Counted from the first letter of the stretch, positions 44,231 to 64,000 are shown. The stretch is DNA of 64,000 nt from Candidatus Fraserbacteria bacterium (GCA_947085185.1 CAMTVK010000007.1:64001-128000), one strand, 5' to 3'. Numbers and translations: made by a program. The notes: a model not told the origin generated them from the sequence alone.

Positions 44231-46648
44231 GTGAGGTCCGACGCAGCCAGACGCGCAGCACAGGTTTTTTTTCTGGTGATTCTCTCGCTGGTGATGCTGA
44301 GAGGGGGCACGAGCGGAGCGCCCGTTGTGCTCGATATCGCTGACGCCAACCAAGATGTCACGATCTTTGGCGCGAACGCCAAAGACTTTCTGACGGACTT
44401 CAACTCGATAGCTATCGGCGATGTGAACGGGGACGGGGTCAATGATCTGATCTTAGGCGATCCTGCGGCCGATGTCGAAGAGGGCGACCGCCGCGACGCC
44501 GGAAAAGTCTATATTATATTCGGCCGAGCCAGGCTTGAGAAGACGTATGACTTGGCCAAATCCCACGCGGATATCGTCGTGACGGGGGCGCGTGCGGGGG
44601 ATATGCTGGGCACGGCAGTCGCTGTCGGCGACATCAACGGCGACGGTCGGCTCGATTTAATTATTGGCGCATCGGGAGTTGACGGCCCCGATGGGCTGCC
44701 TGAGCGCCGCCGCGACGCCGGAGCGGTCTACGTGCTTTTTGGGCGCCCCACCCCCAACAAAGTGATCGATATCTTTGATGGTGACCAAGATATGACGATC
44801 CACGGCGAGTCTCCTGGGGATCGTCTTGGCGCTGCGGTGGCCGCAGGGGATCTCAACGGCGACGGCATCGCTGATATAATTCTCTCTGCGACCGACGCCG
44901 ATGGCCCGCGCAAGGAGCGAGCCAACGCCGGACAAGTCTATGTGCTCTTTGGCAGCACGAGCCTGCCGCGCACGATCGACCTAGCCCGCCAGAACGCCGA
45001 TATGACGGTCTTTGGCCGCAACGCGACCGATCAGGTGGGCAGCGTCGTGGTGAGCGCCAACGTCAATGGGGACGGCTTTGAAGATGTGATCATCGCGGCG
45101 CCTCAGGCCGACGGCCCCGGCAACGGGCGCAACAACGCCGGGGAGGTCTATATAATTTTTGGGGCGACCACGCTGCCTGCCCGTGTAGACTTGGCCAAGG
45201 ATCGTCCGGACGTGTTGATCTACGGGGCCGACGCGGGGGATACCCTGGGGGTCTCGGTGGCGTTTGGCGACGTTGACGGTGACGGTGTGCATGATGTGAT
45301 TCTTGGTGCTCCTGGGGCGAGCGGGCCCCAAAATAAGCGCTCTGGCGCCGGTGAGGTCTATGTGCTCCTGGGCAGTTCTGTGAGAGGGGGAGTTCATGAC
45401 TTCGCTTTAGGACAATACGATATGATCGTCTACGGTGCGGAGGCTGGGGATCGGCTGGGGCGGGCGGTCGCCTCGGGGCAGATCGGCGGGGCGAGCTTCG
45501 CTGAGCCCTTCTGGGATATGGTGCTTGGTGCAGACTCCGCCGACGGGCCGGAGAACAAGAGATTCAACGCTGGGGAGGCATATCTGATCTTAGGGCAGAG
45601 CCCCTTGCCCAGGACGGTCGATCTTGCGGCCAAGGACGCGCCCGTGACGGCAAGCTTTCTCGGCGCCCAGAGCGATGATCGTCTGGGGAGCGCCGTGATT
45701 GCTGGGGACTTAGACGGCGACGGCTTCGCCGAGGTCATCTTGGGCGCGCTCAACGCTGATGGGGAAGGGAATTTAAAGCCCGATTCTGGCGAAGCGTATA
45801 TCTTTTTTGGGAGTCGCTTTGGCCCGCCCAAGCCACCCAATCAGCCCCCGGTTGCCAACGCCGGAGCTGATCAGACTGTGACCGTCGGGACGCGTGTGAC
45901 GCTCAACGGGACTCAATCGAGAGATCCCGACGGTGATCCCATCGCATTCCAATGGCGCTTCGTCTCGGTTCCTGAGGGGAGCGCGGCTGAATTGACAGAC
46001 GCAGACACGGCCAAACCGACGTTCACCCCTGACGTCGTGGGGGAGTATATTCTTGAGCTGGTCGTGACCGATCCTGACGGGGCCACAGGGTCCGATCAAG
46101 TGAAGGTCACCGCTACGGCAGCGCCGACACGCATGAAGGGCGATGTGAACGGCGACGGCAAAGTTGATATTGTGGACGCCAAGCTCGCGGCCGAATTTAT
46201 CGTGGGCTTGCGCGATCTTGATGGGCCATCTCGCTGGGCCGCGGACGTGCGCGAGCCGTGTCAGCCTGCCCCAGGAAGCCCCCAGAATATTGACGTGACC
46301 GACGTGCGCTGGATCGCGGAGTTTGCTATTGGCGTGCGCACGGAGATGTTCTGTCTTGAGGTGCCCATGCCTACAGCGTCAACGAGGGAGCTGGCGCCGT
46401 TGCGCGTGCGCCCGCTGCATAGAACTGTAGAATTCTCGGCTCCCGCAGGCACCCAGATCTCCGTGAAGATCTTCGACATGCTGGGTCGGGTCGTCTATTT
46501 TGCAGAATCGGCTTCGGGGGTGCTGCGGTGGGCGCTCGACGATGTCGGCGGTCGACCCGTGGCCAACGGCGTCTATCTGGCAGTGCTGGAGCTTTGGGAC
46601 GGGACGTATGGCACGCGCGCGGTGCGCAAGCTCATCGTGCGTCGGTGA
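44231..46648 (+). CDS. Secreted FG-GAP (integrin-alpha-like) propeller + PKD-like + dockerin + T9SS-like C-terminal domain
   Basis: Seven GDxNGDG..D.I.GA...DG...AG.VY..FG repeats; NQPPVANAG..DPDGD; GDVNGDGKVDIVD; IFDMLGRVV...VANGVYL...RKLIVRR. Confidence 0.88.
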   Translation: MRSDAARRAAQVFFLVILSLVMLRGGTSGAPVVLDIADANQDVTIFGANAKDFLTDFNSIAIGDVNGDGVNDLILGDPAADVEEGDRRDAGKVYIIFGRARLEKTYDLAKSHADIVVTGARAGDMLGTAVAVGDINGDGRLDLIIGASGVDGPDGLPERRRDAGAVYVLFGRPTPNKVIDIFDGDQDMTIHGESPGDRLGAAVAAGDLNGDGIADIILSATDADGPRKERANAGQVYVLFGSTSLPRTIDLARQNADMTVFGRNATDQVGSVVVSANVNGDGFEDVIIAAPQADGPGNGRNNAGEVYIIFGATTLPARVDLAKDRPDVLIYGADAGDTLGVSVAFGDVDGDGVHDVILGAPGASGPQNKRSGAGEVYVLLGSSVRGGVHDFALGQYDMIVYGAEAGDRLGRAVASGQIGGASFAEPFWDMVLGADSADGPENKRFNAGEAYLILGQSPLPRTVDLAAKDAPVTASFLGAQSDDRLGSAVIAGDLDGDGFAEVILGALNADGEGNLKPDSGEAYIFFGSRFGPPKPPNQPPVANAGADQTVTVGTRVTLNGTQSRDPDGDPIAFQWRFVSVPEGSAAELTDADTAKPTFTPDVVGEYILELVVTDPDGATGSDQVKVTATAAPTRMKGDVNGDGKVDIVDAKLAAEFIVGLRDLDGPSRWAADVREPCQPAPGSPQNIDVTDVRWIAEFAIGVRTEMFCLEVPMPTASTRELAPLRVRPLHRTVEFSAPAGTQISVKIFDMLGRVVYFAESASGVLRWALDDVGGRPVANGVYLAVLELWDGTYGTRAVRKLIVRR

Positions 46649-46801
46649 CGCGTGCTACTTCTATGCCGTGACTTAAGTTACATACAGGGTGCACGGCATG
46701 GGCTACAATGGCAATGATGAAAACACTGACAAGGCAGGTCATCACTTATGATGAGAGACTCTAGTCGGCGCACCGGTGAAGGGAGGTCCTCAAGCGTGGG
46801 T

Positions 46802-48886
46802 ATGAGAAAGAGAAGCTGGTTGCTCGTGCTGATGCCGATATTCGTGCTGGGGTGGGCGGTGGGAGCGTTGGCCGACGACGAAACCGACGTGTTCAACGCC
46901 AACGCGGGCAACACCGAGCCCAATCCCAACCCAGGAGAGAACTTCGTCGTCATCCAGGACGTCATCGTGGCTGATCCAGGACCCTTCGGGGATACGACTC
47001 CCGATAGCTTCCCCACGGCGATCGAGACGGTGACGGTTCGCAAGGCCGGTGGGACTCTTGAAGATCACTTTGTCTTAGCGTTGCGGCTCTATCTCGATGA
47101 CGGCGATGGGCTCTTTGACCCCACGGTGGACCGACTCTTAGGGGCGGTCAACGCGCCCCGGCTGAGCGCAGGGGTTGTCTTCGGCACCCGAGGGCAGCTC
47201 TTGGTGCTGGTGCCCAACAGCGGCTCAGTGGAGTTCTTCGTCGTTGCTGATTTTGCCAACGACGCGCCCGATGGGGCAACCCTGCGCACCAGTTTTGACT
47301 TGACCGTCGGGGATAGCTTGATCGGCGGGCCGACGACGAGCTCGCGCATTGACAGCGCGACGTCGCTGCCCATCTTAAATTTCGATGCGGGGCTGCCTGT
47401 GCCCGTGGGGTTCATTCGCATCACCGCGGCGACGGGCGACGCCGAAACGGACGTCATTGATGAGACCCCCGCGCGCACGGCCAACCCCGGAGATTCTATC
47501 GTCCTGCAAGAGTTCTTGGTCTCCGATCCCGGCGTGTCGGGCGATGCCGTGCCTGATGGGCTGGGCACGCTCATCCGCACGGTCACGGTCAGAAAAGTTG
47601 GCGGGACGATCTCCAGCGATAAGATCTTGAGATTGAGGCTCTTTCGGGCGAGCCCGCGCACCCCGCCAGGGTGGGATGAGCAAGACGAGCTGTTAGCTGT
47701 TGTGAATGCGCCCAATCTGGAGCGCGGCGTTGTCTTCGGCGACGGCGGCCGACGCTTGGTCCGCATCAACGACAACTCCGAAGAGAGATTGTACGTCGTC
47801 GCCGATCTGGCGCCGGTGGGCTTCGTAGACGGCGACACGCTGCGCACCAGCGTGGAGATCGTGGCCCGCGACGACAAGACCGACCCGGGCGAACAATCTT
47901 CGGCGATCGAGACGCCCATGCCGGTCGCGGCTTCCAATCAGCTTGTCGTGAAAGTTCCCCCGCCGACGCTCATCGTTGGCTCAGCGTCGATCGTGGGCAA
48001 GACGAAGATCCCCATCTCGATCAGATTTGTGCCTGGGCCGGGGCTGGGCGAGCTCCAGATCGGCCCCGACGGCGCCCTGACGTTCGATCCCACAGTCGTC
48101 CAGGTGCTCAACATCAAGGGCGTTGGGCCGTATATCGTTGACTCGGTCAATATTGATTCGATCGAGGGTCGGGCGCAATTTGCGCTCACGCTCAAGCCGG
48201 GACGGACAGCCCTCAACGAAGGGGTCATCGCTGAGATCGAGGTGGACAAAGCCCCCGGGGCTCCCCCAGGCGAGTCCGTGCGCATAGATATCGAAGACAT
48301 CGAGGGCCTTGAGGTCGTCGATGTCTTTCGTGACGCGGCCGGGCGCGATCTGTTGCCCGATATCGTCCCTGGGGTGGTCACGATCAAGCTGCTCAAGGGC
48401 GATGTGGACGGCGACGGGGTCGTGACGGTGAGCGATGCGCGCTTGGCGGCGCGGTTCATTCTGGGCATGGAGACGCTCTCCCCCGAGCAAGAAGAAGCCG
48501 CGGATGTGGCGCCGCCCTTGGGAGTGATCGATGCGACCGATGTGCGCTATATCGCCCAAGCGGCGACGGGCCTGCGCCGGCTGGAGCAGCCAACGAGCGC
48601 GACGCTCACCCCGCAAGCACGCCCGACGCATCGCGTGACGGCGAAGCTGCGCGCCGGCACCCTCGAAGTGCGCGTCGCAAGCCAAGCCGTCGCCGAGACG
48701 ACCGTCAGAGTCTTCACGCTCACCGGAAAGTCTGTGACGACGGTGCAGGCCTCCGGACCGACGGTGCGTCTTAGCGAAGGCGATCTTGCCGGACTGCCTA
48801 ACGGCGTCTATCTCTATACAGTCACGGTCTTAGGCCCTGATGGAGTCTGGCAGAGCGACGTGCGCAAGTTCTTGTTGATACGCTAA
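46802..48886 (+). CDS. Secreted protein: two unknown repeat domains + cohesin-like + dockerin + T9SS-like CTD
   Basis: Signal peptide; duplicated ~140 aa domain; LTFDPTVVQV cohesin-like; GDVDGDGVVTVSDA; VFTLTGK...LPNGVYLY...RKFLLIR. Confidence 0.85.
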   Translation: MRKRSWLLVLMPIFVLGWAVGALADDETDVFNANAGNTEPNPNPGENFVVIQDVIVADPGPFGDTTPDSFPTAIETVTVRKAGGTLEDHFVLALRLYLDDGDGLFDPTVDRLLGAVNAPRLSAGVVFGTRGQLLVLVPNSGSVEFFVVADFANDAPDGATLRTSFDLTVGDSLIGGPTTSSRIDSATSLPILNFDAGLPVPVGFIRITAATGDAETDVIDETPARTANPGDSIVLQEFLVSDPGVSGDAVPDGLGTLIRTVTVRKVGGTISSDKILRLRLFRASPRTPPGWDEQDELLAVVNAPNLERGVVFGDGGRRLVRINDNSEERLYVVADLAPVGFVDGDTLRTSVEIVARDDKTDPGEQSSAIETPMPVAASNQLVVKVPPPTLIVGSASIVGKTKIPISIRFVPGPGLGELQIGPDGALTFDPTVVQVLNIKGVGPYIVDSVNIDSIEGRAQFALTLKPGRTALNEGVIAEIEVDKAPGAPPGESVRIDIEDIEGLEVVDVFRDAAGRDLLPDIVPGVVTIKLLKGDVDGDGVVTVSDARLAARFILGMETLSPEQEEAADVAPPLGVIDATDVRYIAQAATGLRRLEQPTSATLTPQARPTHRVTAKLRAGTLEVRVASQAVAETTVRVFTLTGKSVTTVQASGPTVRLSEGDLAGLPNGVYLYTVTVLGPDGVWQSDVRKFLLIR

Positions 48887-48893: not shown

Positions 48894-49865
48894 ATGCGAA
48901 AGATTCTTCTCAACGCTCTGCTTGCTCTTGGCATAGCGGTCTTGGTCGTGGGGTGCTTTCCAAAGCCCAGTGGGCCCCAGCCCCCACAGGCCCTCTTTTC
49001 GTTCAATCCCATCACCCCCAAAGTCGGCGATGACGTCGTCTTCGACGCTTCGGAATCGAAGGACCCCGACGGACAGATTATTGAGTATCTGTGGGATTTT
49101 GGCGACGGCTCGCCCACCGAGAGCGGCCCTATCGTCCTTCATGCCTACGAGAGCGCCGGACAATACACGGTCAAGCTCACCGTCACCGACGATCAGGGGC
49201 TGTCGAACAGCTCAGAGAAGAGCATTACGGTCGTGGCCAGCCAAGCGAGCGCCGTGAAGAGATCTCTGCCCGCGCCGGCCCAAGGCCCCGGGGGGATCGC
49301 CTGGGACGGCTCAGCCTTGTGGGTCGTGGACTCCCTCGATTTGATGAATTATAAAATTTACAAAGTAGACCCGCAAAGCGGGAGCGTGCTCAGCTCCTTT
49401 GAGGTGCCCACGATCGAGCCCGATGGGCTGGCGTGGGACGGCAGTCGCTTATGGCTCGTAGACGGTGTCGAAGGGAAGCTCTTACAGATTGATCCGTCGA
49501 GCGGGAAAGTCTTAAAGACGCTCAACGCGCCGGGGCCGTATCCCACGGGGATCGCCTGGGATGGCGCGGCCCTGTGGGTCGCCGACGCCGACACGCTCAA
49601 GATTTACAAGATCAATCCTGTGACAGGGAAAGTGATCGACTCGTTCGACGCCCCAGGGGACTTTCCGACGGGGCTGGCCTGGGATGGGAAGTTCCTCTGG
49701 CACCTAGACGCAGTCAGTATCTATAAGCTCGATCCTAACGGTGGAGCGGTCTTGGCCGAATACGAAGCGCCGCGGGATCGGCTCTCTGACTTGACGTGGG
49801 ACGGGCAGTTCTTGTGGGCCACCGACGAAGAGGGCAAGCAGCTGGTGCAGCTTGGGTTTGAGTAG
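48894..49865 (+). CDS. Lipoprotein with PKD domain and WDG-repeat beta-propeller
   Basis: Lipobox-like VVGC; DPDGQI..YLWDFGDG; five P.G(I/L)AWDG..LW..D-type repeats. Confidence 0.85.
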   Translation: MRKILLNALLALGIAVLVVGCFPKPSGPQPPQALFSFNPITPKVGDDVVFDASESKDPDGQIIEYLWDFGDGSPTESGPIVLHAYESAGQYTVKLTVTDDQGLSNSSEKSITVVASQASAVKRSLPAPAQGPGGIAWDGSALWVVDSLDLMNYKIYKVDPQSGSVLSSFEVPTIEPDGLAWDGSRLWLVDGVEGKLLQIDPSSGKVLKTLNAPGPYPTGIAWDGAALWVADADTLKIYKINPVTGKVIDSFDAPGDFPTGLAWDGKFLWHLDAVSIYKLDPNGGAVLAEYEAPRDRLSDLTWDGQFLWATDEEGKQLVQLGFE

Positions 49866-50067: not shown

Positions 50068-52221
50068 GTGAGCAAGAGTTCAGTTGTTTTGAGCATAGTC
50101 CTTGTCCTAGGGGCAATGGCGAGCGTAGTAGTAGTGGGGGTGGCCTCCACGTCAGGTAATCCCGAGACGATGGTCTTGAGGGACTTCTCCGGGGCGGTGG
50201 AGCCGGTGGCCCGTCCGGGCCAGACGTTCGTCGTCGCTGGGGCTATCAGAGTGTTCGATCCAGGGGATGACGGAGCGCCTACAGCGATCGAGACGATCTC
50301 CCTCTGCTTAGCGCCAACAAGCACCCTGAGCAGTCGATATATCAGTGGGCTGCGGCTCTACGTTGATGAAGGGTTCAATGGCTTTTTCGATCGGCGCGAG
50401 AGCACACTCTTAGGTTCGGTGGTGCGGCCCAAGCTCGATGACTGTGAGAACCCCGTCACGTTCGGGCGACCGGGGAATCTATTTGTGCTCGTGCCTGATC
50501 GTGGGGCGAAGCTCTTCTTCGTCGTCGTTGATATCGCTTCCGATGCGCCTGATGGCGCAAGCCTTGTGCTGAGCTTCGACGCGGAAGCGTCCGATGGGCT
50601 GCGCGGCGGCCCGGCGATCAGCTCTGGCTTCAGTGCTGATCAAGGCCCGCCAGTATTTACTGATACTATAACAATTCGTGCCACAGGCGGCGACGCCGAA
50701 GCCGACGTCGTCGACGAGACCCCAGCTCTCACAACTCGCCCCGGCACGAGCGTTGTCGTCCAGCAGTTTGTCATCGCTGATCCCGGCTCTGACGGTGATA
50801 CCGAAGATGACGACTTAGCGACTCTCGTGCGCAGCATCACCGTGCAAGCCGTACGCGAAGAGACGACGATAGATCTCTCGCCGGGTGTGGGGCTGATTCA
50901 GAGAGTCAGATTATTCCGGGAGAGCGGGCGCACCGGCCCGGGCTGGCAAGAGGGCGACGAACTTTTAGGAGAAGTCGTGCGGCCCGACTTGGCTGCCGGG
51001 GTGACGTTTGGCAGCGGCGGCCGGAGATTGCTCCGAGTAGGACGGAACAACATCTTCGGCACGGGCGGCGTAGAGCGGCTCTATGTCGTCGTGGATTTGG
51101 CTTCCGGCGGCTTTGCCCACGCTCCTACAGAGAATCTCTTGCGCACGCAGATCACCGTTGTGGCCAGCGACGACAGCTCCGAAGACGGCGAAGAGTCTTC
51201 AGGGATCGAGACCCCTATGCCCGTGATAGCCAATAACGCTATTCAGATTGTGACAGTCAACCCCGGCGGCACGGCGGGGAGTGCTCGAGTCGTCCTGGGA
51301 GACGTGAGCCTGCTACGTGCTGGCAAGGCCGTGATGCGTGTGGAGGGCGTGCCCTTGCCCGGCCTAGCGAGCGTAATGGGCATGGTTAGTTTCGATCCCG
51401 ATATCATTCAGGTAGCCGCGACGAAGCAGGGGGGCTATCGTGTGCGCGGCCTGGGCAATTATCGCGTAGATTTTCTCGATGTGAACAACGAAGGCGGCAC
51501 GATAGAGTTTCTCTTGACTCTCAAGGGGGGGCGCAAGCCCTTGATCGGCGACGGCAGTGTCATGGAGATCGAGTTCGTCTCTGTGGAGGATATAAACCCG
51601 GGAGATGAGTCATATCTTAATGTTGAGATTGAAGACGCGCGGGACGCTCGCGGGGGTGAGCTGGTCTTCGACGAGGTGAGCGGCAGGGTGCGCATTCAGC
51701 TCATCATGGGCGACGTGGACGGCAACGGAGTTGTGACCCGCCGCGATGCCAGGCTGCTGGCGCGCTGGCTCCTGGGCCGTGCCGTGCTTACTCCCCTTCA
51801 AAAGAAAGTCGCCGACGTTGATCACTCCTGTCCGCCTGGCACCGACTGGGCGGCGCTCGCTCCGGGTGGCTGCGTGAACGAGACCGACGTGCGCTGGATC
51901 AAAGAAGCCGCGGCCGGCCTGCGCACCCTCAGCTCGAGTGCGAACTTACAGGCGCTCGGTCGCGGGCTGACGGTCTTGACGCTGCCGTCGGGCGGTCTGG
52001 AGTTCCGAGCCCTGAATGCTGAGCGTCTGAGCGTGCAGGTCTTCGGTCTATCGGGGAGCTTGGTCTTCAATGCCGAGACTACGACCGGAACCCTGCGCTT
52101 CGAGGGCGTCTCCAACAAGGGCGCTCGTCTTGCCAAGGGCGTCTATCTGTACGTGGTGACGCTCTACGGGCGCGACGGAGCCGTGTGGCGCAGTGAAGTG
52201 AGAAAGCTCGTAGTGCGATAG
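50068..52221 (+). CDS. Paralogue of 46802..48886: repeat domains + cohesin-like + dockerin + T9SS-like CTD
   Basis: Shared PTAIET, LRLY.D, TGDAE/GGDAE..V.DETPA, SS.IETPMPV motifs; GDVDGNGVVTRRDA; LAKGVYLY...RKLVVR. Confidence 0.85.
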   Translation: MSKSSVVLSIVLVLGAMASVVVVGVASTSGNPETMVLRDFSGAVEPVARPGQTFVVAGAIRVFDPGDDGAPTAIETISLCLAPTSTLSSRYISGLRLYVDEGFNGFFDRRESTLLGSVVRPKLDDCENPVTFGRPGNLFVLVPDRGAKLFFVVVDIASDAPDGASLVLSFDAEASDGLRGGPAISSGFSADQGPPVFTDTITIRATGGDAEADVVDETPALTTRPGTSVVVQQFVIADPGSDGDTEDDDLATLVRSITVQAVREETTIDLSPGVGLIQRVRLFRESGRTGPGWQEGDELLGEVVRPDLAAGVTFGSGGRRLLRVGRNNIFGTGGVERLYVVVDLASGGFAHAPTENLLRTQITVVASDDSSEDGEESSGIETPMPVIANNAIQIVTVNPGGTAGSARVVLGDVSLLRAGKAVMRVEGVPLPGLASVMGMVSFDPDIIQVAATKQGGYRVRGLGNYRVDFLDVNNEGGTIEFLLTLKGGRKPLIGDGSVMEIEFVSVEDINPGDESYLNVEIEDARDARGGELVFDEVSGRVRIQLIMGDVDGNGVVTRRDARLLARWLLGRAVLTPLQKKVADVDHSCPPGTDWAALAPGGCVNETDVRWIKEAAAGLRTLSSSANLQALGRGLTVLTLPSGGLEFRALNAERLSVQVFGLSGSLVFNAETTTGTLRFEGVSNKGARLAKGVYLYVVTLYGRDGAVWRSEVRKLVVR

Positions 52222-52622: not shown

Positions 52623-52982
52623 ATGCCCAAGGTGACTGTAAGAGGACAGATTCTGTGCCCGGCTCCTATCTTGACGGTCCTGCTGGTCCGGGATGGGGAG
52701 CGGTTCATGGCCAAATGCGTCGAGCTGGATTTGGTCACGGAGATGGACACCCCCCAAGAAGCCTTGCAAGCTATGGTGGAGATGATCCGGGAGTATGCGG
52801 AGGATTATCGCGCCCGCGAGAGCCTGTTTTTGGCCAGCCCCAACCGAGCTCATCATAAGCCCTATGTTGATCGCATCCTAGCCTGCCAAGACGAATGGGA
52901 GCTGTGGGAGCTCCTTGAGGTGCGGCATGGCCGTTTACACCTACCGGCAAGTGCGAAGCGTGCTCCGAAAGCTCGGCTTTAA
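52623..52982 (+). CDS. HicB-like antitoxin
   Basis: FMAKCVELDLVTEMDTPQEALQAMVEMI partial RNase H fold; precedes HicA-like gene. Confidence 0.75.
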   Translation: MPKVTVRGQILCPAPILTVLLVRDGERFMAKCVELDLVTEMDTPQEALQAMVEMIREYAEDYRARESLFLASPNRAHHKPYVDRILACQDEWELWELLEVRHGRLHLPASAKRAPKARL

Positions 52983-53151
52983 GCTGGTGCGCAGTCGCAA
53001 GCACGAGACATGGGAGAAGGTGTTGGAAGATGGCAGTGTGCTGCAAGTGCGGCTTAGTCACAGAGGCGGGCGGGATGTTCCACCAGGAACCTTTGCTGAG
53101 ATGCTGCGGCAAATGGGAATTAGTCGTGAAACCTTCGAGGGATTGGTGTAA
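52927..53151 (+). CDS. HicA-family toxin
   Basis: VRSVLRKLGF..VRSRKHETW...SH...DVPPGTFAEMLRQMGIS. Confidence 0.85.
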   Translation: MAVYTYRQVRSVLRKLGFKLVRSRKHETWEKVLEDGSVLQVRLSHRGGRDVPPGTFAEMLRQMGISRETFEGLV

Positions 53152-53235
53152 GTCAGAGTACCATCGGTGAAAAGCTCCCTCGCTAACCTTTCTGCGTAGG
53201 GAGCATCCTTATCTACTTCGGAGGTGACTGAACAT

Positions 53236-53340
53236 ATGACTTCCGCTATCTGGTTTTTGGTGGCGATCGCGGCGGCAGCAATAGCGATTGGGCTCTTCAC
53301 GTTCGTGCTCGGACGCACGCCTCAGGCACCGCAAAAGTAG
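53236..53340 (+). CDS. 34-aa single-TM peptide
   Basis: RBS GGAGGTGA; MTSAIWFLVAIAAAAIAIGLFTFVLGRTPQAPQK. Confidence 0.55.
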   Translation: MTSAIWFLVAIAAAAIAIGLFTFVLGRTPQAPQK

Positions 53341-53515
53341 ATAGTAGAGCCACTGCGCCGCCCGCCGCCCGTTGTACCCCTCCTCTCTGAGCACTCTGCC
53401 ACAGTCGTGCCCCTGAGAGGATGCCCGCTTTCTTGAGCCATTGCCACACCGCGCAGGGACCATTCGAGCTTGACCAGCGCGCATGTGGAAGGGTAGAATA
53501 ACAAGGTGATGGCGC

Positions 53516-54079
53516 ATGACCTCCAAAGCCCAGATTAAATTCACTTATGAAGACTACAAGAGCCTGCCCTACGTGGAGCGCCAGCGCTATGAGCTGCTCG
53601 AAGGAGAATTGATCCCTATGACGCCATCGCCGGGGGAATCCCATCAGCGCACCTTGGCCAATGTGGGGTTTTACTTGCAGATGTTCGTCCGGCACCACCG
53701 GCTCGGCTCTCTCTATTATGCCCCCTTGGACGTGGTGCTGGGGGAGCCTGGGGAGGAGCAGGTCGTCCAGCCCGACATTCTCTTTGTGGCCAAAGGGCGG
53801 CGCCGTATCATCCGCGAGGAGGAGATTCGCGGGGCGCCGGATTTGGTGGTGGAGGTGCTCTCGGCTTCTACAGAGGAGCGGGATCGGGTCTTCAAGCGGC
53901 GCCTCTACGCCAAGTACGGCGTGAGAGAGTATTGGATCGTTGACCCTGAGGCCAAGACCATTGAGGTTTTGACGTTCAGGGCGCGGGGGTACGAGCGGGC
54001 GGGGCTCTACACCAAGGGCGAGATTCTCCAATCGCCGCTCTTGGCGGGGTTGCAGATTCCCCTCGACGAGGTCTTTTGA
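53516..54079 (+). CDS. Uma2-family (DUF820) endonuclease
   Basis: TYEDY...RYELLEGEL, HQR, VQPDILF, APDLVVEVLS, K..LYA..GV.EYWIVDP. Confidence 0.93.
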   Translation: MTSKAQIKFTYEDYKSLPYVERQRYELLEGELIPMTPSPGESHQRTLANVGFYLQMFVRHHRLGSLYYAPLDVVLGEPGEEQVVQPDILFVAKGRRRIIREEEIRGAPDLVVEVLSASTEERDRVFKRRLYAKYGVREYWIVDPEAKTIEVLTFRARGYERAGLYTKGEILQSPLLAGLQIPLDEVF

Positions 54080-54116
54080 ATCACGGAAGGCACGGGATCG
54101 CGCGGAGAGCACGGAA

Positions 54117-54688: not shown

Positions 54689-55005
54689 AGAAGAGCAAGA
54701 GCAGCCAGCGAATAGTCTACCTCCGCTCGGTGGAGGAGATCCCGGAGTTTGAGAGCCTCGAAGAAGAGGCGGCGTTTTGGGATACTCATAGCCCGGTCGA
54801 GATTCTGGATCAGTTGGAGCCGGTCAAGCTGGAGTTGACCAGCGCGCTGCGACGGAAGTTGGAGGAGCGTTATCAAGAGCGGCTGCTTTCCGTATGGCTG
54901 AAGCCGCACCAGATTAAACGGCTCAAGGAGATCGCCAAAGAGCAAGGGATTGATTGCTTCACGTTAGTGAAGCGATGGATTGAAGCGGGGATAGAGACTC
55001 AGTAG
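54685..55005 (+). CDS. BrnA/CopG-like antitoxin
   Basis: IPEFESLEEEAAFWDTH...RLKEIAKEQGI...LVKRWI; ATGA overlap with brnT. Confidence 0.85.
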   Translation: MKKSKSSQRIVYLRSVEEIPEFESLEEEAAFWDTHSPVEILDQLEPVKLELTSALRRKLEERYQERLLSVWLKPHQIKRLKEIAKEQGIDCFTLVKRWIEAGIETQ

Positions 55006-55746: not shown

Positions 55747-56619
55747 ATGAAGCTCAAGAACATTGCAGTCATCGGGTTGGTGTTGGTTGGCGCAGTCGGA
55801 GCGGTCATCAGCTTTATGGTCTTGGCGGCGATCATCAACGGCGGGCCGGGTGACGATACGTTGACGGACACGGGGGGTAACGACGTCATTCGCGGCTTTG
55901 CGGGCGATGACGACATCACCGTGACTGGCGGGAACGATCGTGTGGACGCTGGCGATGACGACGATCAGATCGAGATTCAGGCCGGTGCCGGACGCGTTTA
56001 CGTCGTCGGTGGCGAGGGCAATGACGTCATTGACGCTCAAGGTGGCGCAAACCATCGGATCTTCGGCAACGACGGGGATGACAACATTCTCATTGGGAGC
56101 GCCGTCTCCGGTGCCCGCGTGGATGCTGGCGATGGCGACGATGTCATTGATCTTACCGAAGTGGGCACTGCTGCCGGTGTCACGGCGAATGTCGTGGTCT
56201 ACGGCGGCAACGGCGACGACGAGATCGAAGCGATCGGCTGTGGTACTACTATCGCCTGTAATCTCAAGATTTACGGCGGCCCTGGTGTGGACAACATCAC
56301 GCTCGGCACTGGCCGCTCTTTTGTCGAGCCGGGCGAGGACGCCGACGTGGTCGTGGCTGGTACTGACCCAGATAGCCGTGACATCATCAACATCCGTGTC
56401 GGCGACGTGCCCGCAGGGGAGACTGAGAAAATCACCTGCGCGCAAGAATCTGATGCGGAGACAACCGTGATCCTCAAGCGCAACTCCTTAGGGTTTTTCC
56501 CTCGGGGAACGCCGACGCAGTTTGACACCAGCGGCGTCTTGACGATCATTGACCCACTTACAGGGGGAATCTACGAAATACGGCAAGGAGATGGCATCTG
56601 TCGGGTCGTGCGACGATAG
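55747..56619 (+). CDS. Signal-peptide hemolysin-type Ca-binding (RTX) repeat protein 1
   Basis: Hydrophobic N-terminus, GGxGxDx repeats, C-terminal GDV..E.I.C...DP.TGG.Y.I..G.G.C domain. Confidence 0.85.
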   Translation: MKLKNIAVIGLVLVGAVGAVISFMVLAAIINGGPGDDTLTDTGGNDVIRGFAGDDDITVTGGNDRVDAGDDDDQIEIQAGAGRVYVVGGEGNDVIDAQGGANHRIFGNDGDDNILIGSAVSGARVDAGDGDDVIDLTEVGTAAGVTANVVVYGGNGDDEIEAIGCGTTIACNLKIYGGPGVDNITLGTGRSFVEPGEDADVVVAGTDPDSRDIINIRVGDVPAGETEKITCAQESDAETTVILKRNSLGFFPRGTPTQFDTSGVLTIIDPLTGGIYEIRQGDGICRVVRR

Positions 56620-56767
56620 TCGTTAGCTGTGGGGCACATTGGTATGTGATCTATTTTGTTGGATATGCCAATGTGCCACACGTGCTTTTATGATGAAGGG
56701 GAGGTGATCGTCGTTAATATTGCTGGGGTTTACATCAGGGTCAACCACAAAAAAGGAGGTTTTACCA

Positions 56768-57766
56768 ATGAAGCGAAGCAAATGGCAGGTCTTAGGAAGT
56801 TTGGCGGCCGCAGTAACTTGTTTGGTCGGGCTTGTTGCGCTGGCAGCGGTCATCATTGGCACGCCAAATGATGACGTGATTGTTGGCACTCCTTCAGGAG
56901 ATCTGATCAAAGGCTTGGAAGGGAACGACGATATCTCCGGTGGGTTCGGAAACGACCGAATTGAAGGCGGCCCAGGTGATGACACCATAGACGGTGAAGA
57001 AGGATCTGACCGAATCTCTGGTGATTCCGGGAACGACACTTTGACAGGAGGGGACGGCAGCGATCTCATTGATGGTGGCAGCGATGACGATAGTATTGAT
57101 GGTGGCGATGGAAACGATCGGCTCTTAGGTGGCTCAGATGGTGATGTTATCATAGCTGGTAGTGGTAATGATCGCCTCGAGGGGGGTACCGGCAACGATG
57201 GGCTCAATGGTGGACCGGGCAACGATCTCCTCAATGGAGGAGAGGGTGATGAAGATGCTCTTGCTGGCGGCATCGTTGGCGGCGACGGCAACGATCGGCT
57301 GATCGGTGGGTCAGGTGATGACAATCTAGGTGATACCAACGGAGACTGTACGGACGACGAAGAACCGGGCAACGATCGGCTGGAAGGCGGCGAAGGCGAC
57401 GATGTGCTCTGTGGAGGCAGCGGCAACGATCTGCTGGTGGGCGGGCCGGGCGCTGACGACAATGGGGGCATCACTCCCATTACTGGAGGCTTCGCCGATG
57501 CTCTACCTGAAACCGACACATACTGGATCCGTCAAGGAGACGTGCCGGAGTTAGAAGTAGAGACCTATCTTTGCACTACTGAAGCAGGTGATACCGGGAT
57601 CATCATCTTCTTTGGGCGGCAGTTCAACTTCCCGCCGGGCGTCATTGTGCCCGGGCAGCTCTTCGACAACGCTCCAGGTCCCGATCTCGTCGTTACTGAT
57701 CCTTCGACTTTCGGGATGTACGAGATAGACGCAGGCCCCGGGACGTGCTTAATCAGGAAGCGCTAA
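56768..57766 (+). CDS. Signal-peptide RTX repeat protein 2
   Basis: RBS AAGGAGG; long run of GGxGNDxL nonapeptides; same C-terminal domain. Confidence 0.88.
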   Translation: MKRSKWQVLGSLAAAVTCLVGLVALAAVIIGTPNDDVIVGTPSGDLIKGLEGNDDISGGFGNDRIEGGPGDDTIDGEEGSDRISGDSGNDTLTGGDGSDLIDGGSDDDSIDGGDGNDRLLGGSDGDVIIAGSGNDRLEGGTGNDGLNGGPGNDLLNGGEGDEDALAGGIVGGDGNDRLIGGSGDDNLGDTNGDCTDDEEPGNDRLEGGEGDDVLCGGSGNDLLVGGPGADDNGGITPITGGFADALPETDTYWIRQGDVPELEVETYLCTTEAGDTGIIIFFGRQFNFPPGVIVPGQLFDNAPGPDLVVTDPSTFGMYEIDAGPGTCLIRKR

Positions 57767-57872
57767 CTTCGGCAGTAGATTGAGCTGAGCAAAGATCGGA
57801 TAACACCGGGGGTCTCGCGGGTGCGGGGCCCCCGGAGTGGTTTTAAGACCGTACGAAGGGCCGCGAAAGCAC

Positions 57873-57980
57873 CTATGGATGCCGCGACTCGCGCCAGTCC
57901 TGGATGATCGTGGGGAGCGCTAGGATTAGAGCAACTAGCACAACTCCCCCCAGCAGGACGTAAAGGCCAAGATACTCCAT
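57873..57980 (-). CDS. 35-aa single-TM peptide
   Basis: MEYLGLYVLLGGVVLVALILALPTIIQDWRESRHP, starts 3 nt after the stop of 57984..58181. Confidence 0.55.
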   Translation of the reverse strand: MEYLGLYVLLGGVVLVALILALPTIIQDWRESRHP

Positions 57981-57983
57981 AAT

Positions 57984-58181
57984 TCATTCACTCCTCTTCT
58001 TGGGTCGAGTGAGCATGTAAGCCAGCCAGGCAAGGATACCGTAGGTCAAGATGCCGATTGTCCCCAGCGATAGCCGGAAGCCCTCTGGGCTCAAGATTTG
58101 TCCGAAGACTAACGCTCCCACCGCTATGTTCGCTGTATCCATCAGCTTTTCCGCGAAGAGTCGCCGTTGCTCTGGAGTCAT
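57984..58181 (-). CDS. Small two-TM hypothetical protein
   Basis: EKLMDTANIAVGALVFGQ...two hydrophobic segments. Confidence 0.65.
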   Translation of the reverse strand: MTPEQRRLFAEKLMDTANIAVGALVFGQILSPEGFRLSLGTIGILTYGILAWLAYMLTRPKKRSE

Positions 58182-58350
58182 AGACGCAATTAGCTTAGCA
58201 AGAGAGATTCAAGAATTCAAGGCGGTTGGGCGTGACGCGCGTCACCGACGCTGGGGGCCCTTGTCCCGTATAATAGTGCCATGAGCGATCCATGCGCTGC
58301 GCTGAGAAGCGCGGGCCGGCACAAGCTAACACTTTGGAAGGAGGCATGCG

Positions 58351-59250
58351 ATGACACAACGACAATTTTACCGAACGGCGATCGCAATCTTGGGGATCTC
58401 AGCGCTGGCAGCGCTGGGGATTGTCAGCTATCTGGTGCTGGCGCTGAACTTCACTTGCCCACCCGCTGGAACGAGCGGCACAACAGTCACCCTCTGCCAG
58501 GGAACAGATAGAAGCGATACAATTGTGTTCGCCTCCGGAATTTCTGCCAGTACCATCACAACCATCAATGGTGGAGGTGGCAGCGATCGCATCATTCTAG
58601 ACTCAAGGGGCACAACAACGCTCGCTATCGGTTCCAATCCGCAAGTCAATGGAGGAGATGGCAACGATAGTATCACGGTTGATTCTCGCGTGACCAATAA
58701 TATACAGATAAACGGTGGGGCAGGCAATGATGTGATTTTCGATGGCGGTGGCGGTACTGCAACGCTCCCGTTGAGAGGCGAGGCTGGCAACGATATCATC
58801 CGAGGGAATGGAGGAAACGACACGATTGAGGGGGGAGATGGCAACGATTTCCTGCTAGGTGGAACGGGCACTGACACAATCAATGGTGGACCAGGCAACG
58901 ATATAATTGACCCTGGCCCAGACGGGGATGGAACCACTTTCCCAGCGACAGCCACAGCCGGCCCCATAGATGGCGGCGGAGGCAATGATGTTTTTATTCT
59001 TCGGCGAGGAGATTCCGGTAATGTTCAAGAGAATATCATCTGCACGCGTAACTCGTCAGATCGCAGCGTGGTGAGATTGGTCGGTTACTCCAAAGACGAT
59101 CCAGCCTTAGCGGGGATCGCGCCTAGCGTGTTGCCGCCTGATCCGTCTCCGTTACCGACGATTCCTGGAGCGATTATTCGCGACGGTACAGGAAGCTTCA
59201 GGATCTTCGCTGGGCCGGGCCGTTGTTCGATTGTGGTCGGCACGCGTTAG
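58351..59250 (+). CDS. Signal-peptide RTX repeat protein 3
   Basis: Hydrophobic N-terminus, GGxGND repeats, GDS..E.I.C...G.F.I..GPG.C C-terminal domain. Confidence 0.85.
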   Translation: MTQRQFYRTAIAILGISALAALGIVSYLVLALNFTCPPAGTSGTTVTLCQGTDRSDTIVFASGISASTITTINGGGGSDRIILDSRGTTTLAIGSNPQVNGGDGNDSITVDSRVTNNIQINGGAGNDVIFDGGGGTATLPLRGEAGNDIIRGNGGNDTIEGGDGNDFLLGGTGTDTINGGPGNDIIDPGPDGDGTTFPATATAGPIDGGGGNDVFILRRGDSGNVQENIICTRNSSDRSVVRLVGYSKDDPALAGIAPSVLPPDPSPLPTIPGAIIRDGTGSFRIFAGPGRCSIVVGTR

Positions 59251-59283
59251 ATTTATAACGAAAGCTCTTGAAGGAGGTTCGCA

Positions 59284-60150
59284 ATGTTGGAGCGCTTTAA
59301 GGAGCAAACTAGTCTCGGTCTGGTGCTTGTCTTCGCTCTTGTCGGAGTGATAGGCTTTATCGCTTGGGCTGCCGTGATCAACGGCACTCCGGGGGATGAT
59401 GATATTGAAGGAACGTCTGCGAATGACAACATCAAGGGATTCGCTGGCGACGATGTCATAAGCGGTAAGGGCGGAAATGACTTCATAGACGGCGGTCTGC
59501 ACGATGATATGATCGCCGGTGACTTCGGAAACGATACCATCTTCGGTGGCGACGGCGATGACACCATCTGCGGTGGTGGCTACGAAGATCCTTCCGGTAA
59601 GTCTGGATGCGATTTCACTTCCCCCAATTTCCCGGTTACCAGTGATGTGATCAACGGTGGTCGCGGCAACGACATGATCTTCGGCAGCAGTGGCAACGAC
59701 CGTCTTATGGGCGGCCCCGGCCACGACACGCTCGTCGGCGGGGCCGGGAATGACTATATTGACGGTGGCACCGGCAATGACACCATTGATGAATTAGTGG
59801 ACGATGGCAGTATAAGCGATTGCGGGAACAACACTCTCATCGGCGGAGCGGGCAACGATGTCATCACCGGCGGCTGCGGCAACGACTTTATAGATCCTGG
59901 GCAAGGGCTCGATCAAGTAGACGCCGGCCCGGGCGATGACACGATCATCATCCGTCCTGGGGACGTCACGGGATTCCAGACAGAGATCATCGCCTGTGGC
60001 GAAGGCGACAACGATACGGTGCTGCTCTCCGGCTTCCCGCGAGGGATCCAGCTTCCCACTGGCACCAACCCGCCGGTGACAGTCACCGATCCCTGGACAC
60101 GGGGGACGTATCTTATTGACGCCAGCTGCGAGATCATCGCCCGACGCTAG
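59284..60150 (+). CDS. Signal-peptide RTX repeat protein 4
   Basis: Hydrophobic N-terminus, GGxGND repeats, GDV..TE.I.C...DPWT.GTY.I...C C-terminal domain. Confidence 0.85.
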   Translation: MLERFKEQTSLGLVLVFALVGVIGFIAWAAVINGTPGDDDIEGTSANDNIKGFAGDDVISGKGGNDFIDGGLHDDMIAGDFGNDTIFGGDGDDTICGGGYEDPSGKSGCDFTSPNFPVTSDVINGGRGNDMIFGSSGNDRLMGGPGHDTLVGGAGNDYIDGGTGNDTIDELVDDGSISDCGNNTLIGGAGNDVITGGCGNDFIDPGQGLDQVDAGPGDDTIIIRPGDVTGFQTEIIACGEGDNDTVLLSGFPRGIQLPTGTNPPVTVTDPWTRGTYLIDASCEIIARR

Positions 60151-60323: not shown

Positions 60324-61622
60324 ATGAGCGGAAAAATACGGCGCGTCATGATCGGCCTCGGCTGGCTCGGCCTCGCCTTGCTCAGCTTGCTCTCTTCTGA
60401 TAAGAATATTCACGCCCAACAGGCCCTCGCCGAAGTCAGCGTCGAGAGCAAAACTCTCGCGCCTAACTCCACCGGCTCCGTCACTATTAGCATCAGCGAA
60501 GGCCCCAACGCCGGCGTCGCCGACATCCAAGGGACCCTGCGGTTCGATCCCAGAGTCCTCAAAGCGACTAAAGTCGAGGGCCAGCAGGACTACGAGGTCT
60601 TCGCTTCTAAGCTCGATAACAACGCCGGCGAAGCGAAGTTCGTCGTCACCAAGCTGCGCGCCCCCTACGCGAAAGCCGGCCCACTTATCAAGATCGAATT
60701 CCAAGCGATCGGCAGATCGGGCGATAGATCAGATCTTCGGCTCACTTTAGATAAGCTGGGCGATCCCACCGATCGCACTATACCCCATAAGATCATCAAC
60801 GGGCTGATCACGCTGGGAATGGTGCAGAATCAGCCGCCCACTGCGAATTTTAGTTTCACCCCCGCCGCGCCCAAGGTGGACGAAGAGATCTCGTTCAAGG
60901 ACGAATCTACTGATCCTGACGGCCCAACAGACATCGTCAGTTGGGAGTGGGACTTCGGCGATGGCACCACGAGCACCGAACAGAACCCCAAGAAGAAATA
61001 CGCTCAGAAGAAAGTCTACGACGTCAAGCTCACGGTGAAGGACAGAGCGGGGCTGCCCAGCTTTGTGGTGAAGAAAGTTCCGGTGGGCATCGTGCCGCCC
61101 AAAGCTGATTTTGTGTTCAGCCCCACAAGCCCCGAAGTCGGCGACGAGGTTCAGTTTACGGATAAGTCTACCGACGACGGCAAGATCGTTGGGTGGCGCT
61201 GGGACTTTGGTGACGGCACCACGAGCACTGAACAAAACCCCAAGAAGAAATACGCTCAGGCGGGAACTTTTAAAGTCAAGCTCACCGCGCGGGATAACGA
61301 TGGCGCCGAGAGCACCGTTGAGAAGAGCATCACTGTGAAGGCTTCAAGTAGGCCGATCATCGGGGTCTTTCCCAATCCGGCGCGCGACAGTGCGACGTTT
61401 GTGTTCACCTTGCCGCCTGGGGCGACCGGCGGGACGTTGCTTGTCTTCAATATCGCTGGGAGGGTCGTGCTGCGCAAGGAGAAGCTGACGGGAACCCAAT
61501 TTGTGTGGGACATCAAGAGGGACGATGTGCCCAGCGGCCCCTATTACTATCTCATGATCGCGTTCAAGGAGAACTCTGTGATAGGCCGCTCGCGCATTGA
61601 GAAACTCATCATTCAGCGTTAG
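60324..61622 (+). CDS. Secreted cohesin-like + 2x PKD + T9SS-like CTD protein
   Basis: GVADIQGTLRFDPRVLK; two WDFGDGTTSTEQNP; VFPNP...VFNIAGRVV...PSGPYYY...KLIIQR. Confidence 0.88.
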   Translation: MSGKIRRVMIGLGWLGLALLSLLSSDKNIHAQQALAEVSVESKTLAPNSTGSVTISISEGPNAGVADIQGTLRFDPRVLKATKVEGQQDYEVFASKLDNNAGEAKFVVTKLRAPYAKAGPLIKIEFQAIGRSGDRSDLRLTLDKLGDPTDRTIPHKIINGLITLGMVQNQPPTANFSFTPAAPKVDEEISFKDESTDPDGPTDIVSWEWDFGDGTTSTEQNPKKKYAQKKVYDVKLTVKDRAGLPSFVVKKVPVGIVPPKADFVFSPTSPEVGDEVQFTDKSTDDGKIVGWRWDFGDGTTSTEQNPKKKYAQAGTFKVKLTARDNDGAESTVEKSITVKASSRPIIGVFPNPARDSATFVFTLPPGATGGTLLVFNIAGRVVLRKEKLTGTQFVWDIKRDDVPSGPYYYLMIAFKENSVIGRSRIEKLIIQR

Positions 61623-61632
61623 GGAGGAGCCG

Positions 61633-62577
61633 ATGCGCCGTGCGTTTTGGCTGCTAGGACTGACTCTTATAGGGCTTGGGGGTGTGGGGCAGGCCCGCCC
61701 GCTCGTCACGGTCTTCGATATTGGCGCGGGGGTGCGCCCGGTGAGCTTGGGCGAGGCGTTCACGGGCCTGGCCGACGACGAATACGCGCTCTTCTATAAC
61801 CCCGCAGGATTAGCTCTGCTCACCGGCGGTCGGGCGAGTCTCTTATATCAGTCGCACTTTGGCGCGTCCACGTATCTCAGCGCATTGGGGAGTTTTGGGA
61901 ATATCGGGGGCGGACTGATATTCTTTGATTTTGGTCAAGTGCCCTGTCTGACGGCGCAGAACCAGCCCTGTAAAGACGCTCAAGGCAAGACGATTAGCTC
62001 GTTCGGGTATTCGAGCTTCGCTCTGGCGGTCGGCTGGGGCGCTCCAATGCGCTCGTTGCCGTTCTTGAGCAATCTTCCCCAAGGGTTGGCGCTGGGGCTG
62101 AGAGTAAAATTCGTCTCGATCACGAGTTTCGATCCCGTCAAGTTTCAGTCTTTAGGGATCAGCGGGTTTGTGTTTGACCCGTCGTTGTTGTGGGAGCTCG
62201 GGGCGTTTGGGCCGGTTGAGGCCGTTCGTGTGGGCGTGGTCTTAGAGAATTTGCTCGGTTTGGCGTTTGGCGCTTCAGCAGAAGAGAATTTCCCGATGGG
62301 GCTGCGCCTGGGGGCCTCGGCACGCGCGCTCGATTTGGTCACGGTGAGCGCGGATCTTTCACTGAATGACGGGTTTCATCTGGGAGCTGAATATACTCTG
62401 ACGAAGCTAGGCCCTCTGGAGAGCTTGAGCATTCGTGCGGGGATGCTCACTCGGACGGGGCTGGGAGTGAGCGTGGGGCTGGGGGTCGTCTTCGGCACGC
62501 TGCAGATAGATTACGCGTTTCTCTTTCATCCCGATTTTGAGGGCTCGCACTGGCTCTCCGCGTCGTTTCGCTTCTAG
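61633..62577 (+). CDS. PorV/UPF0164-like outer-membrane beta-barrel
   Basis: Signal peptide; GVRPVSLGEAFTGLADD..ALFYNPAGL; GAEY, IRAG, IDYAF; C-terminal SFRF beta-signal. Confidence 0.8.
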   Translation: MRRAFWLLGLTLIGLGGVGQARPLVTVFDIGAGVRPVSLGEAFTGLADDEYALFYNPAGLALLTGGRASLLYQSHFGASTYLSALGSFGNIGGGLIFFDFGQVPCLTAQNQPCKDAQGKTISSFGYSSFALAVGWGAPMRSLPFLSNLPQGLALGLRVKFVSITSFDPVKFQSLGISGFVFDPSLLWELGAFGPVEAVRVGVVLENLLGLAFGASAEENFPMGLRLGASARALDLVTVSADLSLNDGFHLGAEYTLTKLGPLESLSIRAGMLTRTGLGVSVGLGVVFGTLQIDYAFLFHPDFEGSHWLSASFRF

Positions 62578-62676: not shown

Positions 62677-63726
62677 ATGAAGCGCACAGAGCGATGGGCG
62701 ATCTTCGTCGTCTTGCTGGGGTGGAGCACGATGGCGTTCGCGCAGGAAGCCGCGGTGCTCACGGTGGAGAGCGTGACCGTGCCCCCAGCGGCCAAGACGA
62801 CCATATCCGTCACGGTAGCACACGTCCCTGCGCCGGGCATCGCCAGCATCCAAGGACGATTCTCATACGATCCGAAAGTGCTCAAAGTCACCGATGTGGC
62901 ATTTCCGCAGATTGTGGGTGCCAACGTCACGGTCTTTAATAATACTCCGGAGTCCGGTCTGGTCCGATTTGCCGCGACGCTTGCCGGCGCAGACATCGCA
63001 GGGATCACCGAGGGGACGCTCTTAGAGTTTTCCGTAGAAGCCGTGGGCAAAAACGGCGACAAGAGCACGCTCACCCTCACCGTCGAAGTCCTGAGCGATG
63101 TCGGGTACAACGCCGTGCCGTATCAGATTATTAATGGGACTTTCGAGATCAAAGAAGTCGTCAATCAGCCACCGGTTGCGGACTTTGAGTTTGCTCCGGC
63201 GCAGCCGGCTGCGGGGCAGACCGTCAAGTTTACCGACAGATCCAAAGACCCCGACGGCCAAGTGAAGTCTTGGCAGTGGGACTTCGGCGACGGCACCACA
63301 AGCACCGAACAGAATCCGTCGCACGTCTATCGCACTGCGGGGACGTTTACAGTAAAGCTCATCGTGACCGACGACAAGGGCGCGCCAAGCCCGCCCACCG
63401 AAAAGAAGATCACCGTGGGGCCGCCGGCGCAGATTGCTGTCACGATCACAAACTTCCCCAATCCCGCGAAAGATCGCACAAAGTTCGTCTACGGCTGGAC
63501 GCTGCCTGCGCCCGCCCGCCAAGCGACCTTGAGAATCTTCACCATCAAGGGCGAATTGGCCTTCACCAAAGACTTAGATACGAACAAGACGGAGTTCATC
63601 TACGATCTGAAAGATAGTGTCGGTCGGCCCTTGCCCAACGGGCCGTACTTCTATGTGCTCTCTGTGACGGCGCAGGACAACAGTATCGTGCGCTCGGCAA
63701 TCGGCGTCTTGGCCGTCCAACGATAA
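62677..63726 (+). CDS. Secreted cohesin-like + PKD + T9SS-like CTD protein
   Basis: GIASIQGRFSYDPKVLKV; WDFGDGTTSTEQNPSH; NFPNP...IFTIKGEL...LPNGPYFY...LAVQR. Confidence 0.88.
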   Translation: MKRTERWAIFVVLLGWSTMAFAQEAAVLTVESVTVPPAAKTTISVTVAHVPAPGIASIQGRFSYDPKVLKVTDVAFPQIVGANVTVFNNTPESGLVRFAATLAGADIAGITEGTLLEFSVEAVGKNGDKSTLTLTVEVLSDVGYNAVPYQIINGTFEIKEVVNQPPVADFEFAPAQPAAGQTVKFTDRSKDPDGQVKSWQWDFGDGTTSTEQNPSHVYRTAGTFTVKLIVTDDKGAPSPPTEKKITVGPPAQIAVTITNFPNPAKDRTKFVYGWTLPAPARQATLRIFTIKGELAFTKDLDTNKTEFIYDLKDSVGRPLPNGPYFYVLSVTAQDNSIVRSAIGVLAVQR

Positions 63727-63737
63727 AGGGGGCTGCA

Positions 63738-64000
63738 ATGAGAGAGTTCCAAGTTCGAAGTTTCAAAGTTTGGGTGAGCCAGGGCTTAGTCTTTATAGCT
63801 CTGCTGGTTGCGATGACAAGCGTTGGGTCAGTTTTTGGGCAGACGCTGCTGTCGCTCTATGAGCTCGAGCGTGGGGCGCGCCCGGCGGCCCTGGGCGGCG
63901 CGTTCACCGGGCTCGCCGATGACGCCTATGCGCTCGTCTATAACCCGGCAGCGTTGGCGTTCTTAGAGCGAGCCAGCGCGCACGCGCTGATCGAATCTCG
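63738..64000 (+). CDS. Second PorV/UPF0164-like beta-barrel, N-terminal part (runs off window)
   Basis: Manual translation MREFQV...GARPAALGGAFTGLADDAYALVYNPAALAFL. Confidence 0.8.
   Translation, partial: MREFQVRSFKVWVSQGLVFIALLVAMTSVGSVFGQTLLSLYELERGARPAALGGAFTGLADDAYALVYNPAALAFLERASAHALIES

Follow-up and report, generated by a model that had tools for sequence, protein, structure and literature searches.

The stretch analysed here, referred to below as the window, comprises 64,000 nucleotides (contig C7:64001-128000) of a 1.72-Mb genome that is 96.8% complete, and its positions 44231-64000 hold a cargo cluster whose cargo, RTX, lipoprotein, and barrel genes all lie on the plus strand. The original prediction had described in this region five signal-peptide proteins with a common C-terminal tail, interleaved with two PorV-like barrels. 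All five open reading frames were recovered at the predicted starts (44231, 46802, 50068, 60324, and 62677); by inspection each begins with an N-terminal hydrophobic signal-like stretch, the tail motifs (I/V)F...G and G(V/P)Y(L/Y/F) and a terminal Arg occur in every one of them, and both barrels are in place. The first cargo protein (44231-46648) consists of a signal peptide, FG-GAP repeats, a PKD domain, a dockerin-like module, and a sorting tail of the unpaired class (one of two tail classes described below). The second (46802-48886) combines an N-terminal region of no known family, for which the database matches were hypothetical clusters only, with a cohesin, a dockerin, and an unpaired-class tail, and a paralogue with 41% identity to it (50068-52221) likewise carries a cohesin, a dockerin, and an unpaired-class tail. 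Between these two lies the gene for a probable lipoprotein (48894-49865; lipobox-like ..VVG-C by inspection) with PKD and propeller-like repeats and no sorting tail. The cluster ends with two adaptor-barrel pairs: adaptor A (60324-61622), composed of a cohesin, two PKD domains, and a barrel-paired-class tail (VFPNP ... KLIIQR), followed after 10 bp by PorV-like barrel A (61633-62577), the predicted binder of that tail, and adaptor B (62677-63726), with a cohesin, a PKD domain, and a barrel-paired-class tail, followed after 11 bp by PorV-like barrel B (384 aa), which occupies 63738-64000, is cut by the window end, and runs on to C7:128892.

Several further features were observed in and around this cluster. 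Small toxin-antitoxin-like and Uma2-like genes (52623-55005, by inspection) break up the cargo run, and similar genes also stand after barrel B. Four RTX-repeat proteins (55747-56619, 56768-57766, 58351-59250, and 59284-60150; together 55747-60150) share one architecture, with a signal-like N-terminus and a two-cysteine C-terminal cap that is not a T9SS-type tail, and similar genes occur in the cargo runs of several relatives. The ends of these proteins were considered as a second T9SS-type signal and rejected (hhalign probability of 0.12% against the tail profile); the modelled end is a beta-roll with a cap that matches RTX proteins only. The TolC channel on which type I secretion of RTX proteins would depend gave no PF02321 match over the cut-off in the genome, with 7 of 14 control genomes positive. 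Hypervariability of the protein at 46802 through a diversity-generating element, suggested by its many database clusters, was also rejected, because 119 of these clusters are 97.7% identical on average and differ at scattered two-state sites. Elsewhere in the window are a defence-like island (16573-27091) comprising a DrmD-like SNF2 helicase, a DUF1156 methylase in two ORFs, and a DUF499 ATPase; a 1650-aa RpoC with large insertions (29235-34187), which, going by the ORF list, has no same-strand rpoB directly upstream; and an 819-aa Family 5 solute-binding protein (39715-42174) whose N-terminus is extended by about 250 residues.

Judging by the source names attached to homologues (Bipolaricaulia, Bipolaricaulota, and Acetothermia), the host belongs to Bipolaricaulota/Acetothermia and not to the FCB group. 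Searches for a standard T9SS motor were negative, so the tails are not those of an FCB-group organism with a standard T9SS. Adaptor B, when searched against named genomes, gave mostly PKD-only matches, and that search was used only for one Bipolaricaulota label and for the Bacteroidota controls.

The five tails form one family that is related to T9SS type-A sorting domains. A profile built from them matched 14 of 8259 ORFs in the genome (the same 14 on a second search), with 12 matches at the C-terminus, no more than two residues from the stop, two just after the signal peptide, and none in mid-protein. All five window tails scored below the TIGR04183 cut-off of 23 (13.5-22.1 bits), a threshold passed by three tails elsewhere in the genome. 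A tail profile searched against the PDB (built, like the barrel profile below, from a 48-row alignment) found the PorU CTD as its best solved match (1e-10), followed by FlgD (6e-6), with further T9SS CTDs at 1e-4 to 4e-3. Tail B lies above the Pfam FlgD_ig cut-off, which, like the FlgD match of the profile, counts against the export reading favoured below. Cargo that joins a signal peptide to a type-A CTD, one of the hallmarks of a T9SS, is accordingly encoded here. The tails fall into a barrel-paired class with a PNP motif, for which the PorU CTD is the best match, and an unpaired class, a division with support of 96 and one exception that rests on few alignment columns. The tails of the three dockerin cargos at 44231, 46802, and 50068 belong to the unpaired class and have no barrel gene of their own. 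At the position of the near-invariant terminal lysine, K or R stands in 16 of 17 class-A tails and Val in 17 of 19 class-B tails, the latter a further point against that reading.

Variants of the tailed architecture were noted at other loci. Two minus-strand genes (L008:6617-7795 and L009:6047-7405) carry the sorting-tail domain at the N-terminus, directly after the signal peptide, and the second of these proteins ends in a Peptidase_G2-like (tail-fibre chaperone-like) region. At L007:5371-6925 (plus strand), a 437-aa signal-peptide ORF overlaps a 90-aa tail-only ORF in another frame, and the pair is probably a split or frameshifted cargo gene. A second cargo cluster (L002:1474-9797, minus strand) encodes, in this order, a 1060-aa tailed protein, a PorV-like barrel, a beta-helix protein of 1368 aa that carries a tail and an EF-hand dockerin-like pair, and an RTX protein.

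The genome contains five paralogues of the PorV-like barrel, four of which are encoded after a tailed gene; the fifth and most divergent (L003:6281-9067, minus strand) is preceded by the gene for a vWA-PKD protein without a tail. The naming of the two window barrels as PorV-like stood on profile homology to the PorV carrier (3.6e-11 against the PDB) and fell short on the curated model NF033709, where they scored 58 and 73 against a cut-off of 90. The next PDB match after PorV was the FadL-type structure 3dwo at 0.22, so that FadL is not the nearest family. The tails might nevertheless be ordinary FlgD-like Ig domains and the barrels small-molecule channels of the FadL/UPF0164 type, with incidental clustering of their genes, a reading to which the FlgD matches of the tails and the weak UPF0164 and FadL/TodX matches at the N-terminal NPA motif of the barrels lend themselves. 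The Pfam Toluene_X match on the barrel covers only about 30 residues and is below the cut-off. We consider this explanation very improbable, since the tails are strictly terminal, PorV exceeds the FadL-type match by about ten orders of magnitude, the gene pairing is kept across the phylum, a tail-barrel complex is predicted, and a SprA homologue stands in the same operons.

For barrel A and tail A, the predicted complex reached a score of 0.84, against 0.00 for the best of three controls (a mark reached by 116 of 157 solved pairs and by 2 of 215 mismatched pairs), with at least 95% of contacts agreeing between runs and a partner pLDDT of at least 88. In the model, K87 of the tail contacts F79 of the barrel, which by position corresponds to F115 of PorV (own count on the profile alignment); in the cryo-EM structure of PMC10994853, it is F115 that the conserved CTD lysine touches. 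Tail A is thus predicted to bind barrel A through a PorV-type contact, and the barrels, being nearer to PorV and predicted tail binders, do not fit a picture of plain Ig tails beside FadL-type barrels that leave them unbound; the score itself may stem from likeness to solved PorV-CTD structures. On a quick tree, the barrel paralogues group by gene position (4 changes versus 23 when shuffled), and the position-grouped barrels and tails show old, stable paralogues; because kin share labels, the grouping is not read as evidence of co-evolution.

A search of the genome for SprA, the pore of the T9SS, yielded a homologue of 1374 aa outside the window on contig C19, directly after the genes for a tailed subtilase and a PorV-like barrel. 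The first clue was a weak TIGR04189 match (E 0.046), far under the cut-off. Since the whole-length protein matched only propellers among PDB sequences, an N-terminal profile was needed to show the homology, and against solved structures this profile matched SprA only (E 6e-11). A homologue with 29% identity to the host protein was trimmed and modelled (pLDDT 89, pTM 0.71), and the four top Foldseek matches of the model were SprA structures (2e-20 to 6e-13), with TM-scores of only 0.42-0.49. The model has about three dozen long strands (own count) and an inserted propeller. The SprA/Sov translocon expected of a T9SS is therefore represented, by profile and fold, in a shortened form. Curated T9SS cut-offs are reached by none of the window tails, by neither window barrel, and not by the SprA-like protein; tail, barrel, and pore are shown by homology or modelling to be relatives of type-A CTD, PorV, and SprA.

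The pore is encoded in 143 of 151 phylum genomes, including 68 of the 69 high-quality ones, mostly as a single copy, and in the same 151 genomes the tail occurs in 148 and the barrel in 146. The gene order subtilase-tail, barrel, SprA-like pore was seen in 17 of 21 loci (the host genome and 20 chosen across families). Distant SprA-like relatives of 1300-1900 aa were also found, and those with taxon names among the 20 checked were labelled Bacillota (including Limnochordaceae), Aerophobetes, and Elusimicrobiota.

Searches for the remaining T9SS components gave negative results with the models used. GldM (PorM) was absent from all 151 phylum genomes, GldL (PorL) and GldN (PorN) gave no match over the cut-off in 28 phylum genomes (one genome had a weak sub-cut-off match to GldL), and PorP/SprF (PF11751) gave none over the cut-off in 28 genomes, again with one weak sub-cut-off match; the five Bacteroidota control genomes were positive for GldM, GldN, GldL, MotA/ExbB, and PorP/SprF. 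GldK (PorK), searched with a model for which there is no true positive control, had no match in the host genome, and neither the PorU sortase (C25) nor any member of the PorK-N set was found there, C25 being present in 5 of 151 phylum genomes. The PorL/PorM rotary motor, the PorK/PorN hub, and the PorU sortase with anionic-LPS attachment, by which a T9SS is otherwise defined, are thus not represented in these results. The proposal of a divergent or minimal T9SS-like pathway is supported by the pore, barrels, and tails, with no motor found, and we assign a probability of roughly 0.7 to the reading that the locus is the cargo-and-anchor part of a stripped-down, motor-less T9SS-like export pathway.

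The main rival to a motor-less pathway is the same pathway energised by some other machine, or by a motor or track so divergent that the GldK/L/M/N and MotA/ExbB models miss it. Release in Bacteroidota needs energy, and in Flavobacterium johnsoniae without its motor, substrates stall on the translocon (PMC10994853); the core components found here are themselves below curated cut-offs, as a motor could be too; the searches covered the GldK/L/M/N and MotA/ExbB models and were non-exhaustive over the proteome; and one Skp-like gene follows bamA (by inspection). We nevertheless regard a hidden motor as unlikely, because no MotA/ExbB gene was detected in any of 28 phylum genomes, with 5/5 Bacteroidota and 9/14 control genomes positive, and the loci read showed no conserved inner-membrane gene next to the SprA-like one.

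Cohesin and dockerin modules are broadly spread outside cellulosomes. Of the three dockerins originally proposed, those at 46802 and 50068 pass the Pfam cut-off of 22.9 (27.6 and 24.0 bits), whereas the module at 44231 stays below it (16.9 bits), although its first calcium loop is canonical and it can be aligned with the other two. The four cohesin-like domains were all confirmed: those at 60324 and 62677 by Pfam (33.2 and 41.4; cut-off 24.1), and those at 46802 and 50068, which are below the Pfam cut-off, by a profile of 35 cohesins from relatives (E 1e-12 and 6.5e-11). The top PDB matches of these modules are solved cellulosomal dockerins and cohesins, and both module types, as a cohesin-dockerin assembly would require, are present in secreted proteins. 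Across the phylum, dockerins (96 of the 151 genomes) are more widespread than detectable cohesins (42 of 151), which counts against the reading favoured here. Eleven envelope proteins from this region were scanned and gave no match to a glycoside hydrolase family, in agreement with the original prediction, and with at most one cohesin per protein none of them is a multi-cohesin scaffoldin; neither the dockerin-bearing glycoside hydrolases nor the scaffoldin that define a cellulosome were thus seen at the locus. A self-assembling scaffold, as first proposed, is plausible, and the cohesin-dockerin assembly step has about an even chance of being correct. Elsewhere in the genome, a tail-less protein (C1:74689-76857) contains a dockerin as well as a hydrophobic stretch, with a cohesin at its C-terminus.

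The window end represents a recurrent cassette of cohesin-PKD-tail A, barrel A, cohesin-PKD-tail B, and barrel B. Among 20 loci fetched for their cohesin matches, which cover all five families of the order, the complete set of four genes is present in 18 (some of these are truncated at a contig end), the second pair alone in one, and a split version of adaptor B in another. Upstream of the cassette, tailed cargo and RTX genes form a variable run. In 9 of the 20 loci, the cassette directly adjoins the SprA-like gene in head-on orientation, a biased rate given that these nine were picked after the proximity had been noticed.

The genome encodes a single BamA, as a search for it showed, and no match to LpxC, which agrees with the atypical, simple diderm envelope without LPS proposed for Bipolaricaulota in PMC6092417. 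Four paralogous signal-peptide proteins of 430-530 aa (C3:64065-68698 and C3:181655-182950), three of them in tandem, end in an outer-membrane-type Phe motif, and the major outer-membrane protein or the toga protein may be among them; the gene for one of the four comes after those for a stand-alone cohesin lipoprotein and a tailed DUF11/dockerin cargo. Such an envelope also accommodates a reading in which the tails bind the barrels but thereby anchor proteins to the periplasmic face of an outer membrane of the toga-like kind, the propeller-bearing barrel being an uptake or envelope structure and the cohesins and dockerins forming a periplasmic mesh. Besides the atypical LPS-free envelope itself (PMC6092417), the inserted propeller of the pore, which resembles those of two-component sensors, and the lipoprotein and tail-less RTX proteins of the same cluster are consistent with it. 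However, the modelled contacts sit at positions equivalent to the CTD-binding loops of PorV, which are extracellular in PorV, and the cargo domains (subtilases, beta-helix, vWA, FG-GAP, and DUF11) are typical of surface proteins, so this arrangement appears less likely still than a hidden motor.

For the motor-less export pathway, we infer CTD-dependent export across the outer membrane. Cargo would cross the inner membrane by Sec, fold, and then enter the SprA-like pore, where the tail would be captured on a PorV-like barrel, and the cargo would leave the pore sideways together with the barrel. In place of a rotary motor, binding to the barrel and diffusion would power release from the pore, which is the weakest step, because release in F. 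johnsoniae needs energy. As no PorU sortase or LPS was found, adaptors A and B likely retain their tails, each remaining attached to its own barrel, in the manner of PorU and PorZ, which keep their CTDs and remain on PorV and PorQ (PMC5562754, PMC10202324). On the barrel-held adaptors, a PKD stalk would then present a cohesin, and the dockerin cargos at 44231, 46802, and 50068 would be exported on a shared barrel before docking on the adaptor cohesins; those bearing both cohesin and dockerin could also link into chains. More speculatively, the conserved tailed subtilase may process tails.

This proposed system can be set beside several that are known. With the SprA-PorV-type A CTD translocon of F. 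johnsoniae (PDB 6H3I, 8GL6, and 8GL8; PMC10994853), it shares a homologous pore, barrel, and tail, an equivalent predicted tail-barrel contact, signal-peptide cargo, and BamA, while the pore measures 1374 aa with an inserted beta-propeller, compared with 2403 aa in F. johnsoniae SprA, the GldL/M/N motor, GldK, and PorP were not found, and the host lies outside the FCB group. As in the PorU-PorV pair and the PorZ-PorQ pair of Porphyromonas gingivalis (PMC5562754 and PMC10202324), CTD-keeping proteins would be held by a PorV-family barrel; unlike the P. gingivalis attachment complex, however, no C25 sortase or LPS was found, and the held proteins would be cohesin-PKD adaptors and a subtilase instead of PorU and PorZ. 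Type B cargo genes likewise cluster with cognate barrels of the PorP-SprF kind that are proposed as surface anchors (PMC10202324), whereas the tails here are type-A-like and the barrels PorV-like. Cohesin-dockerin systems, as covered in PMC12484212, offer modules whose solved cellulosomal relatives match those found here, a single-cohesin anchor, and, in Archaeoglobus fulgidus, an example of a non-cellulosomal pair; in contrast to cellulosomes, there are no glycoside hydrolases or multi-cohesin scaffoldin here, the second dockerin loop is degenerate, and anchoring would be to a barrel in the outer membrane instead of to the cell wall. The system is therefore T9SS-core-like, departs from the Bacteroidota definition in motor, hub, and sortase, and is not a cellulosome.

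Three reviews restrict T9SS and CTD proteins to Bacteroidota or to the FCB group (PMC10202324, PMC12398890, and PMC13721041), and the T9SS is described in PMC12635249 as derived from gliding. No description of a T9SS-like system in Bipolaricaulota was found in the literature searched, in which subscription papers are sparsely represented. A phylum-wide, mostly single-copy SprA-like pore with carriers and cargo, without the known motor, challenges this restriction, and the relatives labelled Bacillota/Limnochordaceae, Aerophobetes, and Elusimicrobiota add to the challenge. As a tentative suggestion, for which we claim well under even odds, the SprA-PorV-CTD core may be an ancient, motor-independent form of outer-membrane display that predates Bacteroidota gliding and that, in this order, mounts barrel-anchored cohesin adaptors to assemble a dockerin-linked coat in an LPS-free diderm, with the subtilase and the pore-fused propeller replacing PorU and PorZ. 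A three-component system of this kind could be used to test whether carrier binding alone drives export, and a small barrel with a tail-borne cohesin anchor may find use in surface display. For the organism itself, the findings make it likely that a pared-down T9SS serves this bacterium in building a coat of surface proteins, and they point to surface adhesins in a phylum for which PMC6092417 reports none annotated.
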